This document shows positions 3,666 to 44,118 of a stretch of 64,000 nucleotides of DNA, one piece after another; the first letter of the stretch is position 1, and the number at the start of each line of letters is the position of its first letter. The notes below the pieces were generated by a model. It worked only from the letters and a program-made list of their open reading frames with translations. It was not told where the DNA came from and did no database searches. The translations under genes and the position numbers were made by a program. Source of the stretch: Planctomycetota bacterium (GTDB lineage: Bacteria > Planctomycetota > UBA8108 > SXIK01); NCBI GenBank assembly GCA_965223845.1, contig CBDCXR010000004.1, positions 5,632,001-5,696,000 of the forward strand, read 5' to 3'.

Positions 3666-3710
3666 GTCGAGTCCGCCCGCCCGCGGGGAGCTCGATCGCC
3701 GCAAGGGGCA

Positions 3711-23190: not shown

Positions 23191-23337
23191 CGCGGCGATT
23201 CCTTCCGGTCCAGCCCGCTCCAAAAGCCGAAAGCGGGTACGATCGGGAAACGATCGTCACCATCATCGCGAATCTCCGCCGCTCGGGCAACGGAAGAGCT
23301 CGCGCACGGGCGCGCTCGTCCGGATGCCGTCCGATGT

Positions 23338-27538: not shown

Positions 27539-30500
27539 ATGCCCTCCGACGATCCCCACCGCCTCGCTCCCGCCGGATTCGGCCCGCGGTACGAAACCAT
27601 TCGTACCCTCGGCCGCGGCGGAGCGGGGACGGTCTATCTCGTCCGCGACGCCTACCTCGAGCAGGAGATCGCGCTCAAGATCCTCGACACGCCCGAGACG
27701 CGAGATGCCGTCGAGGAAACGCAGCGGGAATTCACGCTTCTCGCTCAGATCGACCACCCCGCGATCGCGCGCGCCTACGACTTCGGCTACTTCGGCGATC
27801 GACCGTACTTTACGAGCGAGTACATTCGCGGGGCGCTTCCCGATGCGCCGATCGGCGAGTCCGATGCGCTCGCGCGCATCGGACTCGACATCGCCGAAGC
27901 GCTCGAGTTTCTTCATGCGCACCGGATCCTTCACCTCGACGTCAAGCCGAGCAACATCGCGATCCGGCGCGACCCACCGTCGCACGCGGTGCTTCTCGAC
28001 TTCGGCTTATGGCGGAAAGCCGGTCCCCCGGCGACCGGCCGCCTGCGCGGCTCGCTCCCGTTCATGGCGCCCGAGTACTTCAGCGGGGGCGAGCTCGGAC
28101 CGTGGACGGATGCGTACGCGCTCGGCGTGACTCTCTATCGACTCGCGACGGGCCGGTTTCCGCGCCCGGGCGCCGCCGGCGCGCAGCTCTCGTCCGCAGA
28201 GGACGTCCCCCATCCTTCCGACGAACGTGCGTGGTTTCCCGCGCCCGTTCCTCCGTCGCAAGTGGTCCGTGGTCTCTCGTCCGATTTCGATCGTGTGATC
28301 CTCGAATGCCTGGCGCTCGACCCGGCCGCCCGCGCGATCTCGCCGCGGGATCGGCTCGCGACACTCACGAGACGCGGTTCGTGGAGCCGTCGACTCACGC
28401 GCCCGCACGCCATGCACGAGACGGTCGGGCGAGCCGCTGAGCTCGACCTGATCGATGAGTTTCTGAACGACGACGAGGCGCCCGCCCTCGTCGTGACGGG
28501 ATCGCCGGGTGCAGGCGTGAGTCACGTCCTCCGCGAAGCCAAGCGTCGCGCACAGATCGCCGGCCGAAGCTCGTACCTCGAGCGTGCGGAGGCGCTCGAC
28601 GCGCGACCCGGCAGCGTGCTGCGATGCCTGGCGGCGCATCTCGGCGAAGATGCGGACGCTCGTCGCCGCTGGCGAGAGTTCAGCGATCGACTCCAGCGCC
28701 CGCGAAAGGCTCGCCACCACGGACAGCGAGATAGCACCGCGGACGCCGAACGACGTCTGCGGCGAGTGAGCGAACTCTCCCTCGCGCTGGGCGCGCTCTC
28801 GAATCCGCTCGTCCTTCTCGTCGACGATCTTCACGCATTCGATGAAATCTCCGTTGGACTGATCGCCGATACGCTCCGCGCGATCGCCGCATTCGAAGCT
28901 GACCGTCGACCACCGATTCGAATCGCGGTGGGCTACCGCGAAGAGGGGTCCTCGGTGAGTTTGCTCCGCGAGATCTCGCAACTGGTCGAAGGCGAGAGCC
29001 TCGGCAGGACCTTGACCGTCCTCCCGCTTTCGGCGACCGATACGAACCGTCTCTTCACCGCGGCGGCGCGAGATCTCGGCGAGGAGGCGCCCACGACGAC
29101 GAAGAGCGCGATCGCACGCTACGAAGAGACTCGCGGTCTCCCGGCCCGCATCATCGAGGCGGCGCGGGTGGTCGGACGCGACGCGAAGCAGCGATCGCGG
29201 CGAGAAGAGAAAGAGCCGCCGATCCTTCCCGACGACGAAGGCTCGCTGGCCGTTCTCCGCATCCTTCAGCTTCTGCGCACTCCAGCCTCGGCAAAGGAGA
29301 TTGCGGGCGTGCTCGATCGCCCGCGCCCGCAGATCGAGCGCGATCTCGCGCGGCTCGCCGAGCGTCATCTCGTCCGTGGCGAGGACGACGACCTCCGCCG
29401 TGGGACTCGCTGGCGCGCGCTCGACGGCCTTGCACCAGTCTCGAGCGGAGCGACGAAGACCGAAGAGAGGCGTACGCACCGTGCCGTCGGCCGTATGCTC
29501 GTCACGCGCGCGAAAACGGGAGACGAAGCGGCGATCGTCGAAGCGGCCGGACACTTCGTCCGCGCGGGAGACCGCACCGCCGTGGCCGAGATCGGGGCGG
29601 AGGCGGCTCGTTATTTGACATCGACGTTTCAGAATTGCGCCGCACGCGACATGCTCGCGCGCGTTCTCAAGGCACTCCCTACTCGCGCTCGCGCGCGACG
29701 TGTCGAGGTCGCCCTCGAGATGGCCGATCTCTATTCGCGCACCGGCGACCTCGAGCGCGGGATCGATCTTCTCCGCTCGATCCTCGCGGGCACGCCCGCC
29801 CCGAGCGGCTCGACACGACTCCGCGTCCTCCTCAGCCTCGCGGTCCTCTACGGCCGGCGCGGCGAGTTCAAGCACGCCTCCGCACTCTTCGGCGAGGTGA
29901 TCCCGCGCGACGTCGAATCGGTCCGCGGACTCGAGCGCGAGGAGCTCATTCATTTCGTGAACGAGTACGCCGCGATGAAAGGGTTCACCGGCGACTACGA
30001 GGGCGCGATCGCGCTCTGCGAAAGCGCGATGAAGCTCGCCGGACGAAGCCGCTCGACGGCGATCCGCGACGCCGTCCTCAATCTCTACGCCACGCGAGCC
30101 GCGGTCGCGGTGCGCACGTACGACTATTCCGGAGCGAGCCACCACTTCGAGAGTGCCCTTCAGATCGCCGAGGCGATCGGCTCCGTCACGAACCGCGCGG
30201 TGATCCTCAACAATCTCGGTATCGTCTACAACCAATGCGATCGCTACGCCGATGCGATCCGAGCGTTTCGGGAAGCTGAGCGCACCTGCGTCCAGCTCGA
30301 CGAGGGCCCTTCGCTCGTCTCGATCCAGTGCAACCTCGCGATCCTCTACGCCAAACGCGGCGAGTTCGCCGCCCAAGAGCGTGCGATCGCCGAGGCCGAG
30401 CGCCTCCATCCCGCGGCGGTCGGACAGAGACAGGCTTTCTTCTTCGATCACGCTCGCGGATTGTGCTCCCTCTACCGCGGACGCTTCGCCGAGGCGCGGG

Positions 30501-32350
30501 CTCACCTCGACCGGGCGATCGAAGTCGGAAGCGCCATGGGCGACGAGCACGTCGCGGCGTTCGATCGAATCTACCGCGGGGAGGCTCTATTCTTTCTCGC
30601 CGAGTACGAAGGCGCGGTGCGTGCGCTCGAGGCGGAAACCCGATCGACGCTGCCGACTCGAGTCCGTCAGATGGCTTTCGCACGCCTCGCGCTCGTTCAC
30701 GCGATGACGGCGCTCGAATCCAAGGCGCAGGCGGCTATCGCCGCGCACGCGAGCCTCGCCAACGAACGACCGGTGCCGTTTCTCGATGCATGGGACGACC
30801 TCTTTCTCGGGTGGGCTGCGTCGCTGCTCGGTGATCGCGAGCGCGTCGAAGAACGCCTCGCGCGCGCGGAGCAGTTCTTCGCGCGACACGGCTTCGCACC
30901 GGCTCACGCTCTTACGCGCTGGGTGCGCGCGGAGAACGATCTCCTCGCGGGCGATCTCTCTCGCGTGAGCGAGGCGCTCCGCGGGGTATCCGACGGGAAC
31001 CATCTCACGGCCGTACTCTGGCTCCTTCTCGAGGCGCGAGTCGCCGCCCACGCACTCACCGAGACGCGGGATCGCCAGCCGGTCGGCGATCTCATCGCGC
31101 GATCGGGAGCGGCGCTCGTCGGGAATCCGCTCCCGGAGTGGGAAGCGCGCCTCGAGCGGATTCGCTCCAGGCTCTGGGGCGGGAGAAAGGAAGAAGCGGT
31201 CGACGCGGATCGCGCGCGCTGGGTCGCACACCTCGAAGCATCCGATCGAGATCGCTACCTCGAGAGCGAACACTGGCGCGCTTGGACGGCGATCGATCGC
31301 CTCGACGTGCCGAGCGAACAGCCCGTCGCGCTGGATCGCGCGGAGCTTCCCACCGCGAGCGCGGCTTGCGGTCCGCTTCGCGACGGTTTGGTCACGCGAT
31401 CCCCTGCGATGCGGCGCATCGCGCAGACACTCGACCGCGTCCGCGGAACGGACATCCCGATTCTGCTCACGGGCGAGACGGGAGTTGGAAAAGACTTCAT
31501 CGCGAACATCATTCACGCGGAGAGCGAGCGCGCGAATGAGCCGCTCGCAGTCATCTCCTGCGCAGCTCTCGCGCCGGAGCTCCTCGAAGCGGAGCTCTAC
31601 GGCGCCCGGGCGGGCGCGTACACGAGCCTCGAAACCGACCGTCCGGGCATCCTTCGCGAGGCTCACGGCGGCACCGTTCTTCTCGACGATATCGGTGCGC
31701 TCGGCGCGGAGTCTCAAGCAAAGCTCCTCCGAGTCTTGTCCGCGCAGACGTTTCGGCCGCTCGGGAGCGACGAGGAAATCGAGGTCGACGTTCGCTTTCT
31801 CTTTACGTCCGCGCGCGATCTCGAAGCGGAGGTGACCGCAGGGAACTTTCGCCGCGATCTCTTCCACCGAATGAGCGTTCTCACGATCGCCGTGCCTCCG
31901 CTTCGCGAGCGCGCGGAAGACCTCGAAGCGCTCGCCGGAATCTTTCTCGCCGAAGAGACACGGGCGAACGGATCGCGTCAGGAGCGGATCACGAGCGATG
32001 CCCTCGATTGGCTCCGCCGCCGCGCCTGGCCGGGAAATGTGCGCGAGTTTCGCAATCTCCTCGCGCGGATCCGCGTCGAAGACTCGCGCTCCGTCTCGGT
32101 CGACGCGCTCGAACGAGTGACGAAAACGGACGACACGGTCCACCTCTTCCCGGGAAACGTGCTCGAGGTGGAGACGCTTCCCGTGCTCAAGGAGCGACTC
32201 GAGCGCGATTATGTCGTCTATCACTTCCGGCGGCTCGGCGGGGACACCAAGGCGCTGTGCCGATTCCTCGAGCTCGGTCGACGCCAACTCTATCGGCGCT
32301 GCGAGCGGCTGGGGATTTCGCTCCGCGCGGAGCGAGCGCGGCTGCGGTAG
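27539..32350 (+). CDS. Ser/Thr kinase - STAND(AAA_16) - TPR - sigma54-interacting AAA+ - HTH fusion protein
   Basis: Kinase: GRGGAG, IALK, HLDVKPSN, DFG, MAPE. STAND: VGRAAEL...GSPGAGVS, LVDDLH. TPRs: ILNNLGIVY. bEBP: GETGVGKD, GAYTSL, LLDDIG, WPGNVRE. C-terminal HTH. Confidence 0.9.
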   Translation: MPSDDPHRLAPAGFGPRYETIRTLGRGGAGTVYLVRDAYLEQEIALKILDTPETRDAVEETQREFTLLAQIDHPAIARAYDFGYFGDRPYFTSEYIRGALPDAPIGESDALARIGLDIAEALEFLHAHRILHLDVKPSNIAIRRDPPSHAVLLDFGLWRKAGPPATGRLRGSLPFMAPEYFSGGELGPWTDAYALGVTLYRLATGRFPRPGAAGAQLSSAEDVPHPSDERAWFPAPVPPSQVVRGLSSDFDRVILECLALDPAARAISPRDRLATLTRRGSWSRRLTRPHAMHETVGRAAELDLIDEFLNDDEAPALVVTGSPGAGVSHVLREAKRRAQIAGRSSYLERAEALDARPGSVLRCLAAHLGEDADARRRWREFSDRLQRPRKARHHGQRDSTADAERRLRRVSELSLALGALSNPLVLLVDDLHAFDEISVGLIADTLRAIAAFEADRRPPIRIAVGYREEGSSVSLLREISQLVEGESLGRTLTVLPLSATDTNRLFTAAARDLGEEAPTTTKSAIARYEETRGLPARIIEAARVVGRDAKQRSRREEKEPPILPDDEGSLAVLRILQLLRTPASAKEIAGVLDRPRPQIERDLARLAERHLVRGEDDDLRRGTRWRALDGLAPVSSGATKTEERRTHRAVGRMLVTRAKTGDEAAIVEAAGHFVRAGDRTAVAEIGAEAARYLTSTFQNCAARDMLARVLKALPTRARARRVEVALEMADLYSRTGDLERGIDLLRSILAGTPAPSGSTRLRVLLSLAVLYGRRGEFKHASALFGEVIPRDVESVRGLEREELIHFVNEYAAMKGFTGDYEGAIALCESAMKLAGRSRSTAIRDAVLNLYATRAAVAVRTYDYSGASHHFESALQIAEAIGSVTNRAVILNNLGIVYNQCDRYADAIRAFREAERTCVQLDEGPSLVSIQCNLAILYAKRGEFAAQERAIAEAERLHPAAVGQRQAFFFDHARGLCSLYRGRFAEARAHLDRAIEVGSAMGDEHVAAFDRIYRGEALFFLAEYEGAVRALEAETRSTLPTRVRQMAFARLALVHAMTALESKAQAAIAAHASLANERPVPFLDAWDDLFLGWAASLLGDRERVEERLARAEQFFARHGFAPAHALTRWVRAENDLLAGDLSRVSEALRGVSDGNHLTAVLWLLLEARVAAHALTETRDRQPVGDLIARSGAALVGNPLPEWEARLERIRSRLWGGRKEEAVDADRARWVAHLEASDRDRYLESEHWRAWTAIDRLDVPSEQPVALDRAELPTASAACGPLRDGLVTRSPAMRRIAQTLDRVRGTDIPILLTGETGVGKDFIANIIHAESERANEPLAVISCAALAPELLEAELYGARAGAYTSLETDRPGILREAHGGTVLLDDIGALGAESQAKLLRVLSAQTFRPLGSDEEIEVDVRFLFTSARDLEAEVTAGNFRRDLFHRMSVLTIAVPPLRERAEDLEALAGIFLAEETRANGSRQERITSDALDWLRRRAWPGNVREFRNLLARIRVEDSRSVSVDALERVTKTDDTVHLFPGNVLEVETLPVLKERLERDYVVYHFRRLGGDTKALCRFLELGRRQLYRRCERLGISLRAERARLR

Positions 32351-32361
32351 TCGCCGGAGCG

Positions 32362-33795
32362 CTACGGGTTTCCGGGTGACTCCGCCTCGTACCAGTAGTC
32401 GGGCAGACCGTCCTTCGTCTCCCGCAGGATCTCCACGATCTGCGTGCGCTCCTTGGTCCCGAGATGCGCGAACTTCTCGGGGAGCTCGTTCGCCGTGAGG
32501 ACGTTCCAAAGGCGGCGGTACACGAGGTCTTTCATGACCGGCGGGAGCGCCGCGAACGCGCGCGAGTAGATCATGAAGCTGCACCGATGCTTGAAGAGCC
32601 GCCGCTCGAGATGGAAATCGCGGAGCGAGCGGCCGCTCGAGCTCGCGCGCCGCGTGCGGAGAAAGGCTTTCTCGAATCCCTCGCCTCCTCGAACGCCGCC
32701 TCGGAGCTTGATCTCGCCGGCAAAGAGGAGCCTCTCGACGACGCGATCCGCTTCGCGCTCGACGATTTTCCGCCCGACTCCGCGCAGGCCGCCCAGGGAA
32801 TCGTCGGCGTGCCGGGCGACCGCTTCATCACCGAGCTTCGTGCGAACGTCGCGCTCGTCGAGAGGCGCATCCGCCGCGCCCACCGTACGCTCGAGAACAC
32901 TCCGGCGATAGAGCGCTTGCCGCGTCTTGAAGTTCGCGCGGACGAGCGCGTTGTGAACACCGAGCTGATGCTCGAGCACCATCAGCGCGACGATGTCGCT
33001 CGTCGGAACGAGATAGGGTTCCGTCCAGAAGTACTGCGCGAGCGACGTTTGGTTCGCTCCACGATCGACGTCGAACTCGACCGAGGTCGACGTGCGCGAT
33101 GCGATCGCGTTCCCCATGTGACGTTGGCTGCCGTGGGTCCCCGTGACGTACCAACCGCCCCAACGCTCCTCGAGCGGGCTCCGATCGGTGGTGACGAACG
33201 ATCCTGCCGAGAGAATCGGGAAGCCGCGCTCGTCGGGGTAGACCGAGCGAACGAGGAGGCCGGGAACTCGCCCCGTCCTCCCGCTCGCGTGACACGAGAG
33301 GCAGCCGTTGTCGCGGCGAAAGCGCGGCCGCTTCGTCCCGCGCGGGTCGAGCTGGTAGAACGTCGTGCCGAGCTCCGGATCCGAGCAGGCCACTTCGATC
33401 GCTCCGTTCTGCACCCAGCCGACGTAGCAATCATCGGAGAAATAGACCGCGCGCGGAGTCGAGGGAGAGATCGCGCGGAGCTGAAAACTGGTCTGGGAGA
33501 AGACGAGCACCTGCGACTCGACCGGAACCTCGAGCCGCTCGAGCACTTCGCGCAGAAACGCTCGCTGATCCTTCGGATCCGACGACCAGCCGTCGCGCTC
33601 GATCGTCTTCCCGAGTGCCGCGACGGCGTCCTTCGGACTCGCATCCGAGTAGCGAATCGGCGGGTACTCGAAGTCTTCCCGCTGGGCGAACACCGGCGCA
33701 CTGAGCGCGAGCACGATCAGCGCGGAGCGCCCCGGGGCGCCGAGCCGAACGCGCGCAGAGCGACGGGAATTCCGAGCGTTCGATTGGATGTACAT
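32362..33795 (-). CDS. Secreted monoheme c-type cytochrome-like protein (PVC-type conserved hypothetical)
   Basis: Signal peptide ending VFA-Q, CLSCH heme motif, SQVLVFSQTSFQ, RWGGWYVTG, SDIVALMVLEHQ. Confidence 0.8.
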   Translation of the reverse strand: MYIQSNARNSRRSARVRLGAPGRSALIVLALSAPVFAQREDFEYPPIRYSDASPKDAVAALGKTIERDGWSSDPKDQRAFLREVLERLEVPVESQVLVFSQTSFQLRAISPSTPRAVYFSDDCYVGWVQNGAIEVACSDPELGTTFYQLDPRGTKRPRFRRDNGCLSCHASGRTGRVPGLLVRSVYPDERGFPILSAGSFVTTDRSPLEERWGGWYVTGTHGSQRHMGNAIASRTSTSVEFDVDRGANQTSLAQYFWTEPYLVPTSDIVALMVLEHQLGVHNALVRANFKTRQALYRRSVLERTVGAADAPLDERDVRTKLGDEAVARHADDSLGGLRGVGRKIVEREADRVVERLLFAGEIKLRGGVRGGEGFEKAFLRTRRASSSGRSLRDFHLERRLFKHRCSFMIYSRAFAALPPVMKDLVYRRLWNVLTANELPEKFAHLGTKERTQIVEILRETKDGLPDYWYEAESPGNP

Positions 33796-33851
33796 CGCGC
33801 TGACGTCACGTCCGAACGGTACCGGCAGACTCCCGACTTGATCGGGAATCC

Positions 33852-33878
33852 AAAACTGGTATTCTGTGTACCAGTTTT
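33852..33878. promoter_or_regulatory. Palindromic Rrf2/NsrR-type operator
   Basis: AAAACTGGTA-TTCTGTG-TACCAGTTTT has perfect 10-bp arms. It is an AT-rich island between the divergent rrf2 and cytochrome genes. Confidence 0.8.
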
Positions 33879-33905
33879 AATTCGCGGCATCAACCGGTCC
33901 TCCCG

Positions 33906-34340
33906 ATGAAACTCCGCCTCCAGACCGACTACGGCCTGCGCGTGCTCCTCTATCTCGCGTTCGTCGATAGGATCGCCAACGCCGAGGAGATCGCGACGGC
34001 GTTCGCGATCTCGAAGGACCACCTCGTCAAGGTCGGCCAACATCTCGCGAAACACGGCCTGATCCGCACCGTCCCCGGGCGCGGCGGCGGATTCGTGCTC
34101 GAACGCGATCCGGCCGGAATCACCGTGCGCGAGGTCGTCGAAAAGATGGAAGGACGACCGGGATGCCTCGACTGCATTCCGTCTCCCGACGTCTGTCCGA
34201 TGGAGCCGGGCTGCGGGCTCCGCCGGCTCCTCATCGACGCGGAGAACGCATTTTTCGACGTCCTCGCCACCCGCACGATCGCCGACCTCAGTCGCAATCG
34301 CTCGCGCACCGGTGGGCTTCACAACGTCGAAGTCCTCTGA
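33906..34340 (+). CDS. Rrf2 family transcriptional regulator (NsrR-like, Fe-S)
   Basis: TDYGLRVLLYLA, ISKDHLVKV, GRGGGFVL. Cys cluster CLDC...C...C. Confidence 0.92.
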   Translation: MKLRLQTDYGLRVLLYLAFVDRIANAEEIATAFAISKDHLVKVGQHLAKHGLIRTVPGRGGGFVLERDPAGITVREVVEKMEGRPGCLDCIPSPDVCPMEPGCGLRRLLIDAENAFFDVLATRTIADLSRNRSRTGGLHNVEVL

Positions 34341-34353
34341 GCCTGGCCCGCGA

Positions 34354-34370
34354 GTCCAGTTTTGCTGGAC
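34354..34370. promoter_or_regulatory. Palindrome GTCCAG-N5-CTGGAC, candidate upstream activator sequence
   Basis: Inverted repeat about 140 bp upstream of the sigma54 motif. It could instead be a weak terminator for rrf2. Confidence 0.45.
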
Positions 34371-34505
34371 GAAGCCGGCACAGCGCGTGATGGCGCCTTT
34401 ACGCGGCGAGGCGAATCTCGAGCGGAGGCGTTCTCCCCCAAGTCTCGATCTCATCGAGTGTTGCATCGTCCTCGGCGCACTGAGGAGGAGCGCGCACGAG
34501 CGATC

Positions 34506-34522
34506 TTGGCCTCGCGATTGCG
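34506..34522 (+). promoter_or_regulatory. Sigma54 (-24/-12) promoter
   Basis: TTGGCCTCGCGATTGCG matches TGGC-N7-TTGC with exact spacing. It is intergenic, about 95 bp before ATG 34615. Confidence 0.75.
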
Positions 34523-34614
34523 GGAGCGAGCCGGGACCGGCTTTCGGTGGAGACCTTCACGCCGGGAAGCGCCTCCGCCTCAAACGCATTCAGGGAGAAC
34601 CGGGAGAGTCCGCC

Positions 34615-36642
34615 ATGAAACCAGGAACACGCAGCGCGGCGCTGCTCGCCGTGGGACTCGCGCTGACGGCTACGGCGCAAGCCGACACCGAGTTCATTCG
34701 CGGCGACGCGAACGGCGACGGCCGATTGAGTGCCGCCGACGGCCACTACGCGCTCACTCACCTCTTCCGCGAACCGTTCGAGCCCGCGTGCCTCGACGCC
34801 CTCGACTTCGAGCGGGACGGCCACGTCAACATCTCCGACGCAATTCGGATGCTGAACTACGTCTCCCGCGGCGGACCGCATCCCTGCGCCCCGTTTCCCG
34901 ATCTCGGGACGACCGCCGAAGACTCGCCAACGAGCGGCTGCGAGCAGTACGGCTCCGACGAGACGATCAGCGACTCGACTGCCGCCATCGAAGTGAGAAC
35001 TCGGCCCGCGGCCGAAGCGGGAAAAACGGTGTTCGAAATCTATCTCTCGAGCTCGCGTTCGCTCGCCGGATTCTCGGCCGTGCTGTCGGTCGAAGGCAGT
35101 GTCCTCACCGAAAACCAGAACGACTACGATGCCGACTCCGCGGTCGGATCGGAAGAGGAACTCTCGTACGCGTCCGCGGCGGTGCTCGACGGCGAACTCC
35201 GTTTGACACTCGTGAACACGATCTCCGGATTGAACCGGATCGAGCCGGGAGTCGATCGTCTCGTGATGGAGGCGACGCTCTGCACCGCGACCGGCACGTC
35301 CGCGGGCGACTACGCGCTCGCGTTCGAACAAGTCGAGCTGATCGACTGGGAGACCGCACAATCGATCGCCCCGCAGCAGACGAGCGCCGAGCCCGTCTCG
35401 GTTGCGGCAACCGTAACCGAGTCGGGCTGCGATGATCTCGGCGAGATCGAGGGCGGCGCACTGTGCGCGGACGTCGAACCCGATCCGCCGGAGCCGCCGG
35501 ATCCTCCGCCGGGGCCGCAGGCCGACTTCCGTCGCGGCGATTTCAACTCGGACGGGAGGATCTCGCTCTCCGACGCGGTCATGATGCGCCGGACGCTCTT
35601 TCTCGAAGGTCCACGCGACCCGTGGTGCGAGGACGCGGGAGATGTCGACGACGACGGCGGCTTCAACATCGCTGACCCGATCCGCCTCTTGCTCAAGCTC
35701 TTCGTCGACGACTCGGCGATCCCAGGGCCCGGCCCCGAACCGGGCCCGGATCCCACTCCGGACTCACTGGGGTGCGAAGCCTACGATGTCGTCGCGCCGG
35801 AGGAGACGACCGACGTTGTCCGCTTCGAGGACGTCACCGCGGCGCCGGGACAGATCGTTGCCGTTCCCGTCTACATCTCGAACGAGCGACCCACGGAGGG
35901 ATTTCAAATCGTCGTCGATTACGAACCGAGCGTGTTTGAGCCGCGGTACCTCGGGCCACCGGGGGCGGGAACACACGGCCTTTCGATCGGGGTCGAACTT
36001 CCCCACGCGCTCTCGCTCGTAGGTACGGCGTACGAGGGCTACAACCAGGGAGAGAGCAGCGGCTACGCGTCGCTTCTTCCGGTCGACGACGACACCTTCG
36101 TGTTCGCGTTCGTGCCGAATCTCGTGCACGACTTCGACCGCTTGCCCGCGGGCGAGGAGCAGCTCGCGTTTCGCATTCTCGGTGAAGTGAACCCCAACGC
36201 GGTTCCCGGCACCGTCGTCTCGCTCACGCCGACTCACGGGGAAAACAGAGAGGGCGTCGGGCCGTACGAGTTCAGAACGGAGCTCACGTACGAAGGAAAC
36301 GCACGCTTCGTATCGATTCTTCCGGTCACGCAACCGGGGCTTCTCCAGATCGTCGCCGACGTCATGGTCTTCCGCGGCGATGCCAACAGCGATGGCGACG
36401 TCAACATCGCCGACGCGACGTTCACGCTCGATTACCTCTTCACCGACGGCGCGGCCGCGCCGGGCTGCCCGGACGCAGCCGACGCGAATGACGACGGTGC
36501 GCTCAACATCTCCGATCCGATCGCGATCCTCGTTCAGCTCTTCCTGAAGCGCGATGCGATCGCACCGCCCTATCCCTCGCAGGGTGTCGATCCGACGCCG
36601 GATCTCCTGCCCGCGTGCGCGACCCCGTCGGCGGTCGAATAG
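34615..36642 (+). CDS. Secreted protein with three dockerin-like and two cohesin-like modules
   Basis: Signal peptide. Dockerin-like EF-hand pairs FIRGDANGDG (~34693), FRRGDFNSDG (~35527) and FRGDANSDG (~36369). Intervening beta-rich modules, e.g. VTAAPGQIVAVPVYISN...GFQIVVDYEP. Confidence 0.82.
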   Translation: MKPGTRSAALLAVGLALTATAQADTEFIRGDANGDGRLSAADGHYALTHLFREPFEPACLDALDFERDGHVNISDAIRMLNYVSRGGPHPCAPFPDLGTTAEDSPTSGCEQYGSDETISDSTAAIEVRTRPAAEAGKTVFEIYLSSSRSLAGFSAVLSVEGSVLTENQNDYDADSAVGSEEELSYASAAVLDGELRLTLVNTISGLNRIEPGVDRLVMEATLCTATGTSAGDYALAFEQVELIDWETAQSIAPQQTSAEPVSVAATVTESGCDDLGEIEGGALCADVEPDPPEPPDPPPGPQADFRRGDFNSDGRISLSDAVMMRRTLFLEGPRDPWCEDAGDVDDDGGFNIADPIRLLLKLFVDDSAIPGPGPEPGPDPTPDSLGCEAYDVVAPEETTDVVRFEDVTAAPGQIVAVPVYISNERPTEGFQIVVDYEPSVFEPRYLGPPGAGTHGLSIGVELPHALSLVGTAYEGYNQGESSGYASLLPVDDDTFVFAFVPNLVHDFDRLPAGEEQLAFRILGEVNPNAVPGTVVSLTPTHGENREGVGPYEFRTELTYEGNARFVSILPVTQPGLLQIVADVMVFRGDANSDGDVNIADATFTLDYLFTDGAAAPGCPDAADANDDGALNISDPIAILVQLFLKRDAIAPPYPSQGVDPTPDLLPACATPSAVE

Positions 36643-36682
36643 GCTCGCGAGGCGAGCTCGTTACGCGCCGCGATCGCCGCAT

Positions 36683-39600
36683 TCAGCGGCGGTCGCGGCG
36701 CGTCATTTCCCCCCGAAGTGTTCTCACATCGAGTCCGACTTCGCGGAGCCACGCGTAGAGCCTCGACTTCTTGACGCCCAGCTCTGCGCGCATGGCGCCG
36801 AGGTCGCCAGCGTGAGCTCGGAATCGGTCGCGCAGGTAGGCGCGGTCTACGATTCTTCGCACCGCTGCGATGTTCCGTCCGGCGAGGAGCGACCGGGGAA
36901 CGTCGGGATCGACGCCCCCGTCTTCGCTCGGAGTGAGAAGCTCCGCCAGATCCTCCGCGGTGATTCGCTCGGCGATCGAGCGTTCGACGAGAACGCGGAG
37001 CGCCAGCCCTTCGAGCTCTCGCACGTTTCCTCGCCACGGCTGCCCGGAGAGGAGCGCGAAGGCGGCGGATTCAACGACGGGAACGCGCCGCCCGAGCTTC
37101 CGCGCATGCCGCGCGAGCAAGTGCTCAAAGATCGGAGGGATATCCTCCGGTCGATCGCGGAGCGGCGGTATCTCTAGCGTGAGCGCACCGATGCGAAAGA
37201 GGAGATCCTCCCGCAGCGCTCCCGCTTCGTCGCCCGCGCGCGGCAGAGCACGCGAAGTGAACAGGAAGCGGACGTCGATCGGCCGATCGTCTAGACTTCC
37301 GAGCGGACGCACCGTCTGCCGATCGAGGACGCGGAGAAGCTGCGCCTGATGCGCGAATGGTAGATCGGTGATGCCGTCGACGAGGAGCGTCCCTCCCGAG
37401 GCGTGCTCGAGGATGCCGCTTCGGCTCGCCTCCGCGCCGGTGAACGCGCCGGCGGCGTGACCGAAGAGCTCCGCTTCGAAGAGCTCCTCGGGCAGCGCTC
37501 CGCACGCAATGACCTCGAAGGGTTCCGCGGCACGCGGGCCGCGGTCGTGAAGAACCCGCGCGAGAAGGTCCTTTCCGACGCCGGTCTCACCCACGATGAG
37601 AACGGGCTGATCGACGGCGGCGAGTCGCAGCGCCGAAGCGACGAGATCCTCCATTTGCCGCGACCGGACGACGAGCTCGGCGCCGCCGGTTCGGCGCGGC
37701 GGAGTCGTCGATCGAGCCGACCAGCGTTCGACTTTCTCGCTAACCCGCTCGAGTCGAGAAAACCTCTCTTGAGCGAGGTAGAGTTCGCGTCGGCGTGCGG
37801 GAAGCGACGCGACGATGATTTCGCGAGTCTGCCGCGCGCGGTGCACGTGGTGCCGGGCCGCCTCACGTTCGCCGCGACGGTCGGCGAGAACGGCAAGCTG
37901 CTCCTCGATGCGGCAGTCGATCTCGAGGAACGAGCGGCCGACGATCGCTCCCGCGGCCTCCTCGACCAATCGCTGCGCGCGATCGATGTCGCCGAGAAAC
38001 GCGCTCGCTTCGCTTTCACCGAGTGGCGAGAGGACGGAGAGCGCACGGTGGTCGATCGCGGGTGCGCGGTGAAGTGCGAGCTGGAGCTCGCGCACCTCCC
38101 CGCGGTCACCGGCCCAAAGCGCAACGTAGAGCTTCGCGACGCGCAGCCAGCGGTCGAACGCCGGACAGCGGAGATCGCGAAGACACCGTTCGGCTCGCCG
38201 GAGGTGCTCGCGCGCGGGTGCGAATTCGGTCGCCGCAACCGCGAGCCAAAGTCGATCGCAGCCCTCGAGAAAGCCGACGGGATTCGTCGGCAGAGCCTCG
38301 GCTTCAGCGGCGAAGGCAGACGCTTTCTCCGGCGAGCCGAGCCAGCGCTCGAGCGCGGCGCGGCGCGCGAGCTCCATCCGCCGGACGAGCTCGAACCCCG
38401 GCCGCGGGGAGTTCGGCTGCCTTCGAGCGAGGATCCTCAAGGCATCATCGAAGCGCCCCGAGATCATCTTCGCTTCGGCGAGGTAGACGCTGCCGAACCG
38501 CACCATGTACTCGTCGCTCAGCTCCCGGCCGATCGGAAGCGCGCGCTCGAAGCACTCGATCGCCGTCGTTTCCTCACCGAGAAAGTGCTCGACGAGCCCC
38601 GCGGCAAAGTCGACGAAGAACTCGAGCCGCTCGCCCGATTGTTCGCGGAGGAGTCGGCGCGCGCGGCGAATTTCATCGCGCGCTTCGGTCGCGTCCCCCG
38701 TCTTCGCCGCGATCAGGGCGATGTTGCACGCGATCTGAACGAGAGAGCGGCGCTCGCCCGACGTCGAGATCAAGCGCGCCGAGCGGCGAAAATAGTGACG
38801 TGCGCGAGCGTAGCGGTCGAGCTGATTGAATACGATTCCGAGGTTGTTGAGGATCAGCGCCTGCGGTCCGCGGATCCCTTCTCGCTCGGCGAGACGCAGC
38901 GCCGCAGAGAGATGGTCTCGAGCCTCCGCGAGCCGCATCCGCCGAAGCTCGAGATGGCCGAGAGTCGCACGAAGCGTGACCTCCGCACCGTCCACATCCG
39001 CAGAGCCGCCCCTACGGATTTCATCGAGCGCGGCGAGTCCGCGGCGACACGCAGCGTCCGCCTCGTCGTAGTCTCCGCGAAGAGTGTGGAGCTCCGACAG
39101 CTCGCACTCGATGCGAACGGTTTCGCTTCGATCTACGGCCGGCGACGAGATCGCGAGCGCATCGCCGAAGAGACGGACCGCCTCATCCGGCTTCCCGGCG
39201 CGGTGAAAATGCGCCCCTAGCCTCCGAAGGAAGCGCACGCGATCGCTCCGCGGGAGCTTGCGCAAGACCTCGGCTCCCAACGGTTCGAGAGCCGCGATTC
39301 CTTCGAGGTGATCGCCCTCCTCCGCCCGGAGCTCGCTGATCTCTTCGGCGAGCTCGAATCGCCGGCGGAGAGCACTCTCGCTCGCGAGCGCAGCCTCGAG
39401 GAGCGCGATCGCCGTCTGCGCACGCCCCGCACCGACGAGCTCGGAGACCAGCGAGAGCGCGGCTTCGCGTCCGCGAGCTTGCTGCCCGGTCGCGAGACGG
39501 AGACGAACGAGAAGCGTTCGCTGGCGCAAATTCGCCGCCGGCAAGCGACCGAAGTAATCCCGCGCGCGACGATGGAACTCCGCCGCGCGGATCTCCGGCA

Positions 39601-41437
39601 TGGCGCGGCGGACTCGCTCGCCGAGCTCGTGCTCCGCGAGATAGTAGAGTTGACTCCGACCCTCGGGCGACGACGAAACCACTTCGTTCTCACGTAGATC
39701 CCTGAGAACACGGCTCGCGGTTCTCGTCTTGAGCCCGGCCGCTCCGGCGATCTCGGCCACGCGCATCGGCGCGCACAGAAGCGACATGGTCTCGATCACG
39801 ACTCCCGTCTCGCCCTCGAGGACGCCCGGTTCATCGACCCGACGTTCGCTCCACGGGATGCGAGCGAGTGGGTCTTCCGGAACTCGGCCGTCGCGCGCGT
39901 ACTCTTCGAGAACGAACCGCGCGAGTTGGCGGAGGCGAAGAGGTGTCCCATCGACGTCGGCGGCCCACGCTCGAAGCTGCCCGCGCACGACGCGAAGAGG
40001 ACGAAGAAACCGCTCGAGCAAGGTGATCGCGACACCGCGCACGAGACCGCCCAGCGCGAGCAGCTCGCATCCGCTGCCGGCTCGCGCGGATGCGAACGAA
40101 GCGGCCTCCGAGCTCACCGCGGCGACGAAGAGCCCACGGGCGCTCTCTCTTCGCTCGGAGCACGCAAGAGCGAGCGCCTCGACGGTCGCCCGACTCTCTG
40201 CGTCGGCCTCGTCCAGGTTGTCGACGAGAACGACGAGCGGAAACGAGTCGCCGGCGAAGTACGTAGCGACGGCGCGCGCCGCGCGTTCCGGTGGCGACCC
40301 ACCGTGCTCGCGAGCGAGCGGTTTCAACCACGCCACCGCCTCCTTCCCGCGTCCGCGGAATGCGCGCCGGAGTTGGCGCTCGAGAGACTCCGAGCTCCCG
40401 CCGGGCAGAAACTCGACCCCCGCGACGTCGAGCCCCCGCCACTGCGCGCGACGGCGCGCCTCGGTGAGGAGCCGCGATTTGCCGACGCCGCGCGGACCGG
40501 TGATCCAAAACGCCCGAGCATGTCCCTCGCTCACCTCTCGGAGCGCGACCTCGACTCGCTCGAGTTCCGCTTCGCGGCCGAGAGTGATCTCGCCGGGTTC
40601 ACCCGCCGGGCGCTCGATCTCACGTGAGCCGACCGCGTGCGCGAGCGCGCGACGAAACTCCCGCGCGCCGCCGAATCGTCGGTCGGGATTCGCGGCCATC
40701 GCTTTCGCGATCACTCGCTCGAGATCGAGCGGGACTCGAGCCGGCCAACCCGGAATGTCGCGCGGCAGGCGCACGTCGCCGTCGCTGCGGCCGGTGAGGC
40801 GGTAGAGGAGCAACCGGCCGACGCGGGCGATATCCGCCGCCGGCCCCTGCGCTTCGACGCGGAGAAAATCCGCCCCGCGCGGCGAGCGCGACGAGAGGAG
40901 GGCGGTCGAGCGAAGGTCTCCGCCCCCGGGTCGGAGCCCGAAGTCGATCAGCACGGTTCCCCGGTTCGCGTCGCGCGCCTGAATCACGTTCCCCGGGTGA
41001 AGGTCGATCGGGGAGATCTCGTGGGCGTGGAGGTAGTCGAGCGCTTCGAGAAGATCGAAGATCGGCCGGAGAAGCGCTTCGGCCGAAAGAGCCTCACCGC
41101 CCTCGCCCATCGCCGGCCCGGGCTCGAGCGGGAGTCCGTCGACGAAGCTCCGCGTGTAGAAGGGGAGACGCCTCTCGCCCTCGGTGTAGCCGAAGTCGTA
41201 CGCCGCTGCGATCTGCGGATGGCGGAGATCGGCGATGACGCGGAATTCGTCGCGGAGTCGCTCGAGACCCTCGTCGGAGAACACCTCGGGACGAATCAGC
41301 TTGAGCGAGACGAGCTCGCCGCGCTGCTCATCGTCGACGAGGTAGACCGTACCCACGCTGCCCGAGCCGAGTCGACGAACGACGCGGTAACGCCCAGCGA
41401 AAACGAAGTCCGAGCTGAACGCAGGGGAGCCGCTCAT
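36683..41437 (-). CDS. Pseudokinase - STAND(AAA_16) - TPR - sigma54-interacting AAA+ - HTH fusion protein
   Basis: Kinase-like: GSGSVG, VSLK, PIDLHPGN, DFG. STAND: LGREAEL...GPRGVGKS. TPRs: ILNNLGIVF. bEBP: GETGVGKD, GAFTGA, LVDGIT, WRGNVRE. C-terminal HTH. Confidence 0.9.
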   Translation of the reverse strand: MSGSPAFSSDFVFAGRYRVVRRLGSGSVGTVYLVDDEQRGELVSLKLIRPEVFSDEGLERLRDEFRVIADLRHPQIAAAYDFGYTEGERRLPFYTRSFVDGLPLEPGPAMGEGGEALSAEALLRPIFDLLEALDYLHAHEISPIDLHPGNVIQARDANRGTVLIDFGLRPGGGDLRSTALLSSRSPRGADFLRVEAQGPAADIARVGRLLLYRLTGRSDGDVRLPRDIPGWPARVPLDLERVIAKAMAANPDRRFGGAREFRRALAHAVGSREIERPAGEPGEITLGREAELERVEVALREVSEGHARAFWITGPRGVGKSRLLTEARRRAQWRGLDVAGVEFLPGGSSESLERQLRRAFRGRGKEAVAWLKPLAREHGGSPPERAARAVATYFAGDSFPLVVLVDNLDEADAESRATVEALALACSERRESARGLFVAAVSSEAASFASARAGSGCELLALGGLVRGVAITLLERFLRPLRVVRGQLRAWAADVDGTPLRLRQLARFVLEEYARDGRVPEDPLARIPWSERRVDEPGVLEGETGVVIETMSLLCAPMRVAEIAGAAGLKTRTASRVLRDLRENEVVSSSPEGRSQLYYLAEHELGERVRRAMPEIRAAEFHRRARDYFGRLPAANLRQRTLLVRLRLATGQQARGREAALSLVSELVGAGRAQTAIALLEAALASESALRRRFELAEEISELRAEEGDHLEGIAALEPLGAEVLRKLPRSDRVRFLRRLGAHFHRAGKPDEAVRLFGDALAISSPAVDRSETVRIECELSELHTLRGDYDEADAACRRGLAALDEIRRGGSADVDGAEVTLRATLGHLELRRMRLAEARDHLSAALRLAEREGIRGPQALILNNLGIVFNQLDRYARARHYFRRSARLISTSGERRSLVQIACNIALIAAKTGDATEARDEIRRARRLLREQSGERLEFFVDFAAGLVEHFLGEETTAIECFERALPIGRELSDEYMVRFGSVYLAEAKMISGRFDDALRILARRQPNSPRPGFELVRRMELARRAALERWLGSPEKASAFAAEAEALPTNPVGFLEGCDRLWLAVAATEFAPAREHLRRAERCLRDLRCPAFDRWLRVAKLYVALWAGDRGEVRELQLALHRAPAIDHRALSVLSPLGESEASAFLGDIDRAQRLVEEAAGAIVGRSFLEIDCRIEEQLAVLADRRGEREAARHHVHRARQTREIIVASLPARRRELYLAQERFSRLERVSEKVERWSARSTTPPRRTGGAELVVRSRQMEDLVASALRLAAVDQPVLIVGETGVGKDLLARVLHDRGPRAAEPFEVIACGALPEELFEAELFGHAAGAFTGAEASRSGILEHASGGTLLVDGITDLPFAHQAQLLRVLDRQTVRPLGSLDDRPIDVRFLFTSRALPRAGDEAGALREDLLFRIGALTLEIPPLRDRPEDIPPIFEHLLARHARKLGRRVPVVESAAFALLSGQPWRGNVRELEGLALRVLVERSIAERITAEDLAELLTPSEDGGVDPDVPRSLLAGRNIAAVRRIVDRAYLRDRFRAHAGDLGAMRAELGVKKSRLYAWLREVGLDVRTLRGEMTRRDRR

Positions 41438-41819
41438 GGCTCTTAGCGTAAGCTCCGAGCGACGAAGAGCGGCAGGAATTCACGGACGGGTTTGATCTCG
41501 AGTTGACCGTGACGCGAAGCAGCGAAGAAGACGACGACGGTGGCCGCCGCGTGCCGGATGAGAATGGTGTCGGCGATCCTCGCGTCTCCCGGCCGGCGGG
41601 CCGCCGAGATTGTCTCACCTCCGGGAATCCATCGCGCGAGGTCGAAAGTTCCGGACGCGGAGTGAGCGCCGAGATGCGGTCGAGTCGCACCGCTCAGGCG
41701 CCGGCTCGAGTTCATCTCGGTCTGAATGCAAACGAGTTCCCGCCGTCTCAGAGATAATCGAGCCGAGAGGGGAACAGAGATCACCCCTGCGAGAGAACTT
41801 CAACGAACGAGGGCATCCG

Positions 41820-42263
41820 ATGACACGAGCTGCTGTTTTCCTCGCGCCGCTTTTCCTTTTCGTTTCCGCGTGCACGATCTACGTTCCCGTGCGCGAACGT
41901 CGGGCGCCGCGTTACGAGCCCGCACCGCACTCGCCAGTGTCTGCGACGGCCGCGGAGATCGACGCCGCGTGCCGACTCGACATCGACTTTCAGAAGCAGG
42001 AAGCCCTCACTCGGATCGCCCGGCGATCGAATCTCGATCCGGAAGACCAAGCCCAACTAGCGCGCGCGGCTCTCGAATGTCTCTCGATCGATCTTCAAAA
42101 ACGCGATGTGCTCCTCCAGATCATCAACGGGCCCCGCTTCGGAGAGCCGGCGAAGATCGCGATCCTCGACGGTCTCGATTCCCTCGCGATCAGTCACATG
42201 CGAAACGAGATCCTCGCGGCGATCGACGCCCGGGGAGAGCGAGACGCGCTGCCTTCCGAGTAG
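41820..42263 (+). CDS. Small lipoprotein with helical repeats
   Basis: Lipobox FVSA-C. Three similar helical units: LDIDFQKQEAL, LSIDLQKRDVL, LAISHMRNEIL. Confidence 0.75.
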   Translation: MTRAAVFLAPLFLFVSACTIYVPVRERRAPRYEPAPHSPVSATAAEIDAACRLDIDFQKQEALTRIARRSNLDPEDQAQLARAALECLSIDLQKRDVLLQIINGPRFGEPAKIAILDGLDSLAISHMRNEILAAIDARGERDALPSE

Positions 42264-42453
42264 ACGCCGACTGCGGGGCGGGAATCGATGGCGTCGACGC
42301 CATTCGCCATCGCCTCGAGTAGATCCCGCGAAACTCCGGCCACGCGTTTCGGCTTTCGTGCGGGCCGATGAGTCGGTTCTGGAGGAGATCGCCGCCTCGT
42401 CGTACCCTGGAGAGGTCCGTCCTCGGCTCCCCTCCACTCTCGTTGGCTCAGCG

Positions 42454-44118
42454 ATGCGAACTCCCGGACTCGTAACTCCCGTGCTCGCGATCTTCGTGAG
42501 CACCTTGTCGACCCAAGCAGAAACGCTCACGGAGGACACGGTCTGGTCGGGCACGGTCGACGTCGAAGGCGAGCTCGAAGTCGCGGACGGTGTAACGCTT
42601 TCCATCGACCCGGGAACCGTCGTCCGGCTCGCTCCGGGCGCGACCGTCGTCGTCCGCGGACGCCTCATGGCCGACGGCACGGAACCCGAGCCGATTCGGT
42701 TCACCCGCGCGAGCGACACCGAGCCGTGGGAGCGAATCTACTTCATCCGTGCCGACGACAGTCGTCTCCGCTACGTGACCATCGAGTACGCGGACTCCGA
42801 GGGCGACCACAAGGACTATTACGACGACAAAGACGAGAACTGCGAGCCCGTCTCCGAACGAGACCCGCGCGATTATCACGAAGCGGTCGTCGTCATCGCG
42901 AGTCACGTCGACATCGAGAATTGTGTCTTTCAGAATCTTCCGGGCGGCGGCGACGACGAAGGCGATGCGATCGCTGTCATCTCCGACGATCCCGTGCATC
43001 CGGGTGACGCCAGCGCGATCATCCGCGGGTGTCAGTTCCTTTCGATCGGCCAGGGAGTGCACACCCGCTACGCGTACGTTCTCGTCGAGGAGTGTTTCTT
43101 TACGGATCACCACGGGGACAACGACGACGTCGATCTCTACGGCGAAAGCGACCCCCCACCGCTCATCCTCAACAACGTTTTTCTCGATCCCGACCACGAC
43201 GACATGATCAATCCGACGCGCTGCTCCGCGCGGCTCATCGGGAACGTGATCGCCGGGAGCGACGATCACGGGATCGTGCTTCGCGATCGTTGCGATCCGG
43301 TGCTCATCAACAACGTGATCTATGACTGTTCGAGTGCGGGCATCGCCGTTCAGAATTCCTGCGACGCCCTCCTCGTGAACAACACCATCGCGAACTGCGG
43401 GCGCGGTGTGCGCTTCTTCGATCACACGGGACGATGGGGACTCCCGTACTGCCTCACGCCCGGAAGTGGACGTGCGACCGTGATCAACACCATCGTTTGG
43501 GATTGCCCGACTCCGATGTCGCTCGCCGACACGCCGTACGAAGAGGAGCCGGGCTCTCACGTCACGATCGAGTATTCGAGCATCGATGGGACGCTCGAGG
43601 ACTTTTCGGTCGATAGCGAATCGACGGTGACGTGGGGTGACGGGAATCGGAGCGACCCGCCGATGTTCGTCGATCCAGATTCGGGTGATTTCCGTCTCGC
43701 GGAGGGATCTCCGCTCGTCGATCAAGGCACGGCAGACGGTGCGCCCGAGATCGATTTCGACGGCAAGCCTCGACCCTGCGGAGAGGGGGTGGACATCGGA
43801 GCATTCGAGTACGGCGAGTGCGACGACCCGCCGCCGCCCGGACCGCGGTTCGTGCGCGGCGATGCCAACGCCGACGGTAGCGAAGACGTTTCGGACGCGC
43901 TGACGATTCTCTTCTTTCTCTTCGGCGATGGTGCGGAGCCCGTCTGTCGAAAGAGCGCCGATGCGGACGACAGCGGTGAACTCAACCTCGCCGACGCCGT
44001 GTATTCACTCAACTCGCTCTTCCTCCTCGGCCCTGCACCGCCGCTGCCGAACGGCGCCTGTGGCGCGGATCCGACCGAGGATGGACTTCCGTGCGAAGCG
44101 TACCCGCCTTGCGCGTGA
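42454..44118 (+). CDS. Secreted right-handed parallel beta-helix protein with C-terminal dockerin-like domain
   Basis: Signal peptide, NNxI-type PbH1 repeats, DFRLAEGSPLVDQG...DIGAFEY, FVRGDANADG...SADADDSGELNLAD. Confidence 0.85.
   Translation: MRTPGLVTPVLAIFVSTLSTQAETLTEDTVWSGTVDVEGELEVADGVTLSIDPGTVVRLAPGATVVVRGRLMADGTEPEPIRFTRASDTEPWERIYFIRADDSRLRYVTIEYADSEGDHKDYYDDKDENCEPVSERDPRDYHEAVVVIASHVDIENCVFQNLPGGGDDEGDAIAVISDDPVHPGDASAIIRGCQFLSIGQGVHTRYAYVLVEECFFTDHHGDNDDVDLYGESDPPPLILNNVFLDPDHDDMINPTRCSARLIGNVIAGSDDHGIVLRDRCDPVLINNVIYDCSSAGIAVQNSCDALLVNNTIANCGRGVRFFDHTGRWGLPYCLTPGSGRATVINTIVWDCPTPMSLADTPYEEEPGSHVTIEYSSIDGTLEDFSVDSESTVTWGDGNRSDPPMFVDPDSGDFRLAEGSPLVDQGTADGAPEIDFDGKPRPCGEGVDIGAFEYGECDDPPPPGPRFVRGDANADGSEDVSDALTILFFLFGDGAEPVCRKSADADDSGELNLADAVYSLNSLFLLGPAPPLPNGACGADPTEDGLPCEAYPPCA

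Follow-up and report, generated by a model that had tools for sequence, protein, structure and literature searches.

The 64,000-nucleotide stretch of planctomycete DNA analyzed here (the window) encodes two giant regulators, termed A and B, that face each other across a few kilobases. Giants of this kind join a protein kinase-like domain to a STAND NTPase with winged helix, a TPR sensor, the AAA+ module of a bacterial enhancer-binding protein (bEBP) and a helix-turn-helix (HTH), and the family is known mostly from metagenomes. The original prediction for this DNA held that A and B carry complementary inactivated active sites and may form a hetero-oligomer with divided labour. We arrive at a different reading and put its probability at roughly 0.6. 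A and B would be independent one-component sigma-54 activators from two old subfamilies, each of which seems to switch on a neighbouring secreted cohesin-dockerin gene. In the window this gene, termed Y, adjoins B.

Architecture and clade signatures of the giant regulators

The two giant genes are convergent, and 4332 bp separates their stop codons. Pfam finds one domain order in both proteins, namely Pkinase, AAA_16 (STAND), TPR, Sigma54_activat and AAA_lid_14. The E-values in A are 2.6e-34 for Pkinase, 6.9e-12 for AAA_16, 7.6e-19 for TPR_12, 3.4e-52 for Sigma54_activat and 1e-13 for AAA_lid_14, and B reaches 1.1e-13, 5.3e-15, 1.1e-16 and 1.7e-49 for the first four. No NCBIfam model was matched above any curated cut-off. 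BLASTP aligns A with B in two segments at 34-36% identity. A structural model of A residues 283-700 has a mean predicted local distance difference test score (pLDDT) of 87.9. Its best PDB matches are plant NLRs, the STAND-TPR protein 6mfv, MalT (8bob), Apaf-1 and CED-4, all with a probability of 1.00 and a global template modelling (TM) score of just 0.3-0.4, and a sequence search of residues 285-1250 against the PDB returned kinesin light chain TPRs as its sole matches. The reading frames and the Pfam search bear out the shared kinase-STAND-TPR-sigma54 activator architecture of about 1600 amino acids that had been proposed, the fold matches agree with the proposed NLR-like STAND-TPR sensor, and every motif quoted at that time is found in the translations.

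These motifs are HLDVKPSN, DFG and APE in the kinase of A, GSPGAGVS at its STAND P-loop, GAYTSL in the L1 loop and LLDD at Walker B; B reads PIDLHPGN and DFG with no APE, followed by GPRGVGKS, GAFTGA and LVDG. The STAND P-loop pattern GxxxxGK[ST] is thus present in B and missing in A. The Hanks-type kinase set (G-loop, VAIK Lys, alpha-C Glu, HxDxKxxN, DFG, APE) is complete in A. Changes in the kinase domain of B are confined to the catalytic-loop lysine, which is His, the histidine of HxD, which is Pro, and the missing APE, and because of these B is predicted to be a pseudokinase or an atypical kinase. The earlier pseudokinase label is right as to PIDLHPGN and APE, but it overlooks that most catalytic residues are retained (catalytic Asp and Asn, DFG, the VAIK lysine in the form SLK, and the alpha-C Glu). 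In the bEBP module, Walker A is GETGVGKD in both proteins, and both have the arginine finger (R-finger) region (FRRDLFHR / LREDLLFR) and the sensor II motif GNVRE. In its L1 loop A has the aromatic residue and T without the closing GA, and contact of this loop with sigma-54 is putative. The canonical Walker B glutamate (hhhhDE) is present in neither protein.

A and B do not form an isolated pair, since they are two of 12 proteins of 1579-1984 amino acids which a genome search and Pfam identified in the 7.93-Mb, four-contig assembly of the window's genome (G000; other G codes denote relatives in our class sample). All 12 combine a kinase or its remnant with AAA_16/TPR and Sigma54_activat. A GAF domain precedes the AAA+ module in 3 of them, and some paralogues match the Pfam model TPR_MalT. 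In a database of 5.8 billion proteins, of which 8000 candidates were scored, 617 proteins match A at E<=1e-3. Among the 120 of these that were listed nearly all carry PF00069 and PF00158; the listed records are auto-annotated sigma-54-interacting regulators from Planctomycetota, Acidobacteriota and Myxococcota, and one relative bears the source name 'PknK'. The subfamily of about 1600 amino acids is present in 7 of the 59 genomes of the class, all from one order.

A FastTree phylogeny of 25 full-length or nearly full-length members (midpoint root, local Shimodaira-Hasegawa (SH)-like support, partial row G002_C607p omitted) contains three clades with a support of 100 each: the A-clade, the B-clade and a third clade around paralogue 4517683. 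A groups with genes from G002, G009 and G014. The B-clade has 11 rows, made up of B, three more paralogues of G000 and genes from G003, G005, G009, G017 and G028. A and B are not sister paralogues; they belong to separate clades.

Each clade has fixed signatures, which we counted in 57 A-clade rows (a 37-sequence alignment for the kinase residues) and in 32 B-clade rows, one protein being there twice. In the A-clade kinase K47, E64, H132, D134, K136, N139, DFG and E179 are invariant, as are R1438, R1444, N1500 and R1502 of the R-finger region and sensor II. The STAND P-loop lysine occurs in 0/57 rows; the position holds Gln (38), Leu (7), His (3), Val (2) or other residues (7), which gives the pattern GxxGxG[Q/L/H/V][ST]. 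The A-clade L1 loop follows GA[FY]T[DGS]x. Canonical GAFTGA is seen in 0/55 readable rows and GAFTDL is the most frequent form (19); F or Y is retained in 55/55 and T in 53/55, and the loop ends in D, G or S followed by L, I, M or Q. B-clade rows have His at the catalytic-loop lysine position in 32/32 cases, DFG in 32/32 and mostly PPE for APE, together with STAND GK[ST] in 29/32 and a mostly canonical GAFTGA. The claim of complementary inactivation had treated the changes at the P-loop lysine, the L1 loop and the kinase lysine as losses particular to this pair. Since all three are kept clade-wide across the 57 and 32 homologues, three of the four "reciprocal losses" are, as judged from the alignments, old lineage signatures and not decay.

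The fourth concerns the Walker B glutamate of the bEBP module, whose loss is scattered and amounts to about 45% in each clade. Among 54 readable A-clade rows there are 29 with DE, 11 with DG, 4 with DD and ten other variants (non-DE 25/54). The 31 readable B-clade rows comprise DE 17, DD 7, DG 3, DA 2, DS 1 and DH 1 (non-DE 14/31). Within G000, DE is kept in 16/17 ordinary bEBPs as opposed to 6/12 giants. While the glutamate varies, conservation extends to the bEBP Walker A, to the first Walker B Asp, to the R-finger region and to sensor II. A Glu-to-Asp exchange at this position usually slows hydrolysis strongly. It had been proposed that the acidic Walker B of A complements B; as the glutamate is missing from both A (DD) and B (DG), pairing them rebuilds no canonical site. 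The DD-type giants 3287379 and 4763356 stand alone, each with a Y gene of its own. Departures are also seen in two ordinary bEBPs (G000:C4:3422189-3423775 and 7612796-7614829), one having DG at Walker B and another SGISGS in place of GAFTGA.

The cohesin-dockerin gene, its promoter candidate and its surroundings

Y is convergent with B, with 40 bp from stop to stop. Pfam recognizes Dockerin_1 at 4.4e-16. The AlphaFold model of Y (mean pLDDT 74.5) contains two beta-sandwich domains, for which cohesin modules are the top PDB matches (TM scores normalised to the target of 0.64-0.73). With its dockerin repeats and this fold, Y is a secreted cohesin-dockerin protein with putative binding modules. 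Orthologues of Y (38-40% identity, >700 amino acids) are convergent to B-like genes in G003 and G014 and lie near a B-like gene in G009. A-like genes of G002 and G009 have neighbours with a weaker likeness to Y, and in G000 Y paralogues adjoin 7 other giant regulators. An open reading frame (ORF) with a dockerin module is found at <=200 bp from 8 of the 12 giants, and none lies so close to A and three others. Strong matches to Y (E<=1e-20) are concentrated in the same way, 7 of the 10 ORFs being within 3.4 kb of a giant. A giant regulator and an adjoining secreted dockerin-cohesin gene form a conserved module, represented here by B and Y.

Dockerin modules like those of Y are common in G000, where 222 ORFs of >=150 amino acids match them at E<=1e-6, about one per 36 kb. 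This is a very large repertoire for a non-cellulolytic phylum. The B-like gene of G014 (G014:C204, L053 6937-12034) spreads over three frames with an internal stop, through a genuine break or a faulty assembly, and has two Y-like neighbours.

A sigma-54-type promoter candidate precedes Y (Table 1). It is the single TGGC-N7-TTGC match on both strands of the window, with 0.66 expected by chance, and a near-identical CTTGGCCTCGCGTTTGC stands upstream of the Y orthologue in G009 (L049 4601-4615). The candidate takes its weight from its position and conservation. No site with >=10/12 of the strict sigma-54 consensus exists anywhere in the window. Further upstream, a block that aligns with a counterpart in the orthologous region of G009 is possibly an activator-binding site. 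A weak element ahead of B is similar to the GGAAC-N5-TTTGC sites that precede Y paralogues. Between 32200 and 36800, scans for terminators and for sigma-70 promoters were negative. Sites of the form GG-N10-GC with >=9/12 consensus positions lie <=250 nt upstream of the presumed start in 10 of 20 dockerin-type genes beside giants, compared with 0.62 expected from the genome-wide rate. All 4 A-like-associated genes examined carry such a sigma-54-like site, which suggests that A-clade proteins serve sigma-54 promoters with the variant loop they have and with no B-like gene alongside.

G000 has two rpoN (Sigma54_DBD) genes (G000:C4:7043805-7044275 and 639835-640311). A second sigma-54 tied to the variant loop of the A-clade was considered and rejected, as >=2 rpoN matches occur in 27 of 31 class-sample genomes whatever their A-clade status. 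Elsewhere in G000 a near-perfect sigma-54 consensus, TGGCACGATCGTTGCA, is located at L013 6864-6878 (+), G000:C4 about 2184709, between giant 2184846 and its Y-like neighbour and on the strand opposite both.

Table 1. Positions of genes, protein domains and regulatory elements in the window
Feature	Nucleotides	Strand	Residues	Remarks
Gene A	27539-32350	+		A-clade giant regulator, 1603 aa; ORF free of internal stops
A kinase	27590-28336		18-266	
A STAND	28385-29638		283-700	nucleotide-binding, helical and winged-helix domains (NBD-HD-WHD)
A TPR			about 700-1250	
A Sigma54_activat	31391-31888		1285-1450	
A AAA lid			1456-1528	followed by HTH-like tail at C-terminus
Gene X	32362-33795	-		477 aa; signal peptide, CxxCH haem-binding-type motif
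Rrf2-family regulator	33906-34340	+		144 aa, divergent from X; Pfam Rrf2 2.5e-30
Candidate activator-binding block ATGGCGCCTTTAC	34390-34402	+		about 105 nt upstream of promoter candidate; counterpart ATGGCGCTTTAC in G009
Sigma-54-type promoter candidate TGGCCTCGCGATTGC	34507-34521	+		TGGC-N7-TTGC, -24 GG, -12 GC; 93 nt before Y ATG
Gene Y	34615-36642	+		675 aa; signal peptide, then dockerin-cohesin-dockerin-cohesin-dockerin
Gene B	36683-41437	-		B-clade giant regulator, 1584 aa; ORF free of internal stops
B Sigma54_activat	37175-37672		1256-1421	
B AAA_16	40169-40582		286-423	TPR after
B kinase-like domain	40934-41389		17-168	
Weak sigma-54-like element CGGGAACTCGTTTGCA	41727-41742	-		290 nt upstream of B ATG; 8/12 consensus positions; lead only
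Beta-helix protein with C-terminal dockerin module	42106-44118	+		5' side of B, divergent; likely start near 42454; Pfam Beta_helix 8.8e-16, BLASTP match to Y

The region between the giants had been described as a 4.3-kb cassette. The length is correct, but the region holds three unrelated genes (X, the Rrf2 regulator and Y) and no single unit. X has no Pfam or NCBIfam family. Homologues of X exist in 12 of 30 relatives, with orthologues at unrelated places and in genomes without giants; X is not linked to giant regulators elsewhere. The Rrf2 gene is probably a separate unit. X and the Rrf2 gene diverge from a stretch of 110 bp, which contains a perfect inverted repeat, AAAACTGGTA-N7-TACCAGTTTT at 33852-33878, as a candidate Rrf2 operator. 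On the other side of B, a small predicted lipoprotein of 147 amino acids (signal ending ...LFLFVSAC; 41820-42263, +) is encoded divergently from B, between it and the beta-helix/dockerin gene. Another secreted protein with a C-terminal dockerin module, glucose/sorbosone dehydrogenase-like and containing a PKD domain, is encoded 6 kb from B (47598-49508, +). The planctomycete-specific families PSCyt1, PSCyt2 and PSD1 are encoded at 20080-23223 and, with the source names of homologues, assign the genome to Planctomycetota.

Independent activators or partners

If the giants are independent activators, a signal sensed by the TPR/STAND part, possibly modulated by phosphorylation, would drive oligomerisation of the C-terminal AAA+ module, and a ring of these modules would activate sigma-54 RNA polymerase at the promoter of the adjoining dockerin-cohesin gene. 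In MalT-type regulators ligand sensing releases STAND-driven oligomerisation. By analogy, ligand sensing by the TPR arm of the giants may free STAND-driven oligomerisation and bring the AAA+ modules into a ring. The kinase of the A-clade or the pseudokinase of the B-clade might add phosphorylation control or a docking surface. The module in the window would then consist of B and Y with the promoter at 34507-34521, B activating Y, and A would have come to lie near them through gene-order shuffling, having no partner gene of its own here. The data themselves extend to the architecture, the motifs kept across each clade, the unconserved A-B pairing, the linkage of giants to Y-type genes and the promoter-like sites, whereas the activation of Y by B, the oligomerisation mechanism and the signal are what we infer.

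The gene content and gene order of the relatives bear directly on this reading. A-clade genes exist in G000, G002 (>=4 copies), G009 and G014. B-clade genes exist in these four genomes too, and additionally in G003, G005, G017 and G028. In two of the latter, G003 (one contig, 91% complete) and G005 (91% complete), the search gave no A-clade match. Downstream of A-like genes no B-like gene is located, neither within 10.7 kb in G014 nor within 3.4-4.2 kb at two G002 copies, and the examined loci of the B-like genes of G003, G005, G009 and G014 have no A-like gene beside them. The contig with the G009 A-like gene ends on the gene's 3' side. A check proposed with the original prediction was whether the complementary losses co-occur in paired homologues across Planctomycetota. 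A-like/B-like adjacency is absent in the examined loci of G002, G003, G005, G009 and G014, and B-like genes occur without A-like ones in G003 and G005. Homologues occur singly and their degeneracy is uncorrelated, the outcome that had been named beforehand as a refutation.

Several points weigh against independent activators. No Y-type gene belongs to A, and the sole good sigma-54-like site near A is that of Y. Two giants lie within 4.3 kb of each other where 0.07 pairs are expected by chance, so the proximity of A may mean something. Gene context was checked in just 7 genomes, all from a single order, and several of these have short contigs. A contig scan with the A-clade alignment, using patterns from the kinase domain, returned unrelated kinases or bEBPs at 79 of 80 loci and the G014 contig alone was useful. 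A metagenome scan with a narrower A-clade alignment gave three real relatives, all short (2-6 kb). As the metagenome relatives are so few and short, the test of pairing rests on the 7 genomes. The site at 34507-34521 scores just 8/12 on the full consensus, and a core match arises by chance in about half of such windows. In the promoter statistics related genes, paralogues as well as orthologues, are counted together although they are not independent, and the background is genome-wide and not intergenic, so that the binomial figure overstates the promoter case. Finally, A and B lack the catalytic Walker B glutamate with which bEBPs hydrolyse ATP.

Some of these points would fit dual-input control. 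Here the one sigma-54 promoter of Y would integrate two signals, being served by both A and B, whether through a separate ring for each at different upstream sites or through loosely mixed rings. The proximity of A would be functional, but the partnership not obligate. We regard this as possible but doubtful. In its favour are the one good sigma-54-type site between and around A and B, the lack at A of the Y-type neighbour that A-like genes have elsewhere, and the close spacing of the two giants. Interacting paralogous bEBPs are on record as well, namely HrpR/HrpS (PMC3105312) and, reportedly, RedR1/RedR2 and the Azotobacter paralogues. However, the A-B neighbourhood is not seen in the other genomes examined, the B-Y module recurs without A in G003, G009 and G014, and the two genes that separate A from Y, X and Rrf2, show no link to the regulators in other genomes.

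A wider version would have the giants act as a network. Active-kinase members such as A would phosphorylate pseudokinase members such as B, or the two would form mixed rings at cohesin-dockerin promoters, and A-Y-B would be two NLR-like sensors jointly gating one sigma-54 promoter. The idea stems from the fact that about 45% of both clades lack the AAA+ glutamate but keep the other residues of the ATP site, and that one clade joins an active kinase to a dead P-loop while the other joins a live P-loop to a His-variant pseudokinase. We consider it unlikely.

An obligate hetero-oligomer along the lines of the original prediction, in which A would give the kinase and the Walker B acid and B the STAND ATPase and the sigma-54 contact, appears improbable. 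Its appeal lies in the reciprocal motif pattern of the A/B pair, and all 4 A-clade genomes (G000, G002, G009, G014) also hold B-clade genes. In HrpR/HrpS, according to PMC3105312, a Walker B substitution in one subunit leaves residual activity and the loops are off consensus (GAFTGV, GAYTGA). However, A and B are convergent and not co-transcribed, they come from separate clades whose signatures are clade-wide, and neither has the Walker B glutamate with which pairing could restore a canonical site. Elsewhere genes of the two clades are not neighbours, the B-clade occurs without the A-clade in G003 and G005, and A-like genes stand alone beside Y-like genes with sigma-54-like promoters.

There is likewise only a slim chance that B is a decaying copy, redundant and out of function, whose extra changes stem from relaxed selection. 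The branch of B is the longest of its subclade (1.03, against 0.53-0.68 for its nearest relatives), and B alone in its clade has PID for HLD, SLK for ALK, no PPE, and LVDN at the STAND Walker B. Its Pkinase match covers profile positions 1-144 of 263, which is the N-lobe and catalytic loop only, but partial Pkinase matches are usual among B-clade paralogues. The frame is open over 1584 codons with a coding-type GC content at third codon positions (GC3) of 0.77. The bEBP Walker A, GAFTGA, the R-finger region, sensor II and the STAND P-loop are intact, and synteny with Y and the Y promoter is kept.

That the giants are NLR-like conflict or defence sensors with the bEBP module as the effector that triggers a defence response is highly improbable: the STAND and TPR folds are those of NLRs and bacterial antiviral STANDs, and the kinase and bEBP domains match PADLOC models (PD-T4-6, mad6, RtcR-like), but these matches are at the level of generic kinase and AAA+ domains with no defence-system model over the STAND-TPR part, the conserved neighbours are secreted cohesin-dockerin proteins and not known defence effectors, and the 12 copies are chromosomal and have orthologues throughout an order.

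Relation to known systems and meaning

The AAA+ module of the giants is built like that of NtrC/PspF-type bEBPs, with Walker A GETGxGK[DE], a GAFTGA-type L1 loop, the R-finger region, sensor II GNVRE and the lid; rpoN genes are present and sigma-54-type promoters adjoin. In contrast to these bEBPs, which have receiver, GAF, PAS or V4R domains, the regulatory region of the giants consists of about 1250 amino acids of kinase, STAND and TPR. The Walker B glutamate is missing not just in A and B but in about 45% of both clades, as described above, and the A-clade L1 loop ends in D, G or S plus L, I, M or Q and not in GA. Within the GAFTGA loop F and T are the key residues (PMC3105312).

According to the same paper, HrpR/HrpS of Pseudomonas syringae resemble A and B in being two paralogous bEBPs at one locus with non-consensus loops (GAFTGV and GAYTGA) and an unequal need for the Walker B glutamate. 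However, HrpR and HrpS are tandem, co-transcribed, recently duplicated sister paralogues without regulatory domains. A and B are convergent, 4332 bp apart, 34-36% identical, from old separate clades and unpaired in relatives, and by their genomic setting are no pair of the HrpR/HrpS type. A layout nearer to HrpR/HrpS than that of A and B is seen at the 1984-amino-acid giant paralogue (G000:C4:7722975-7731284, L020), which has an ordinary bEBP of 680 amino acids 313 bp upstream on the same strand. The L020 locus also contains TGGC-N7-TTGC at 5433-5419 (-), ahead of ORF 3653-5257 (-).

MalT and other LAL-type STAND activators share with the giants a STAND NTPase and winged helix with a TPR sensor behind them, by which a transcriptional output is driven, and MalT (8bob) and 6mfv are among the best fold matches. 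In the giants, however, the output is a sigma-54 AAA+ activator and not a LuxR or SARP DNA-binding domain, a kinase is fused in cis, and the P-loop lysine is missing from the A-clade. AfsR with its kinase AfsK and PknK of Mycobacterium tuberculosis are further STAND-type systems for comparison. Y, for its part, has dockerin repeats and two cohesin-like beta-sandwich domains as in cellulosomal scaffoldins. It differs from them in that cohesins and dockerins alternate in one secreted protein of 675 amino acids with no catalytic or carbohydrate-binding module, in a planctomycete host with 222 dockerin-module ORFs. We found no description of a kinase-STAND-sigma-54 fusion in the full-text literature, whose coverage leaves out most subscription journals.

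For the analysis of such loci, A and B illustrate that reciprocal-looking defects in neighbouring paralogues can be lineage signatures and not complementation. The family challenges two textbook rules, as its activators are often without the Walker B glutamate and one of its STAND clades is without the P-loop lysine. Its interest lies chiefly in this seemingly dispensable glutamate, in the lysine-less STAND clade and in the dedicated link to cohesin-dockerin genes. If A and B are indeed independent activators, they would represent a widespread and unstudied sigma-54 wiring, in which the AAA+ activator carries an NLR-like STAND/TPR sensor and a eukaryote-type kinase on the same chain, with a dozen copies per genome. 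These copies would be dedicated to secreted cohesin-dockerin proteins that may build a planctomycete cell-surface matrix.

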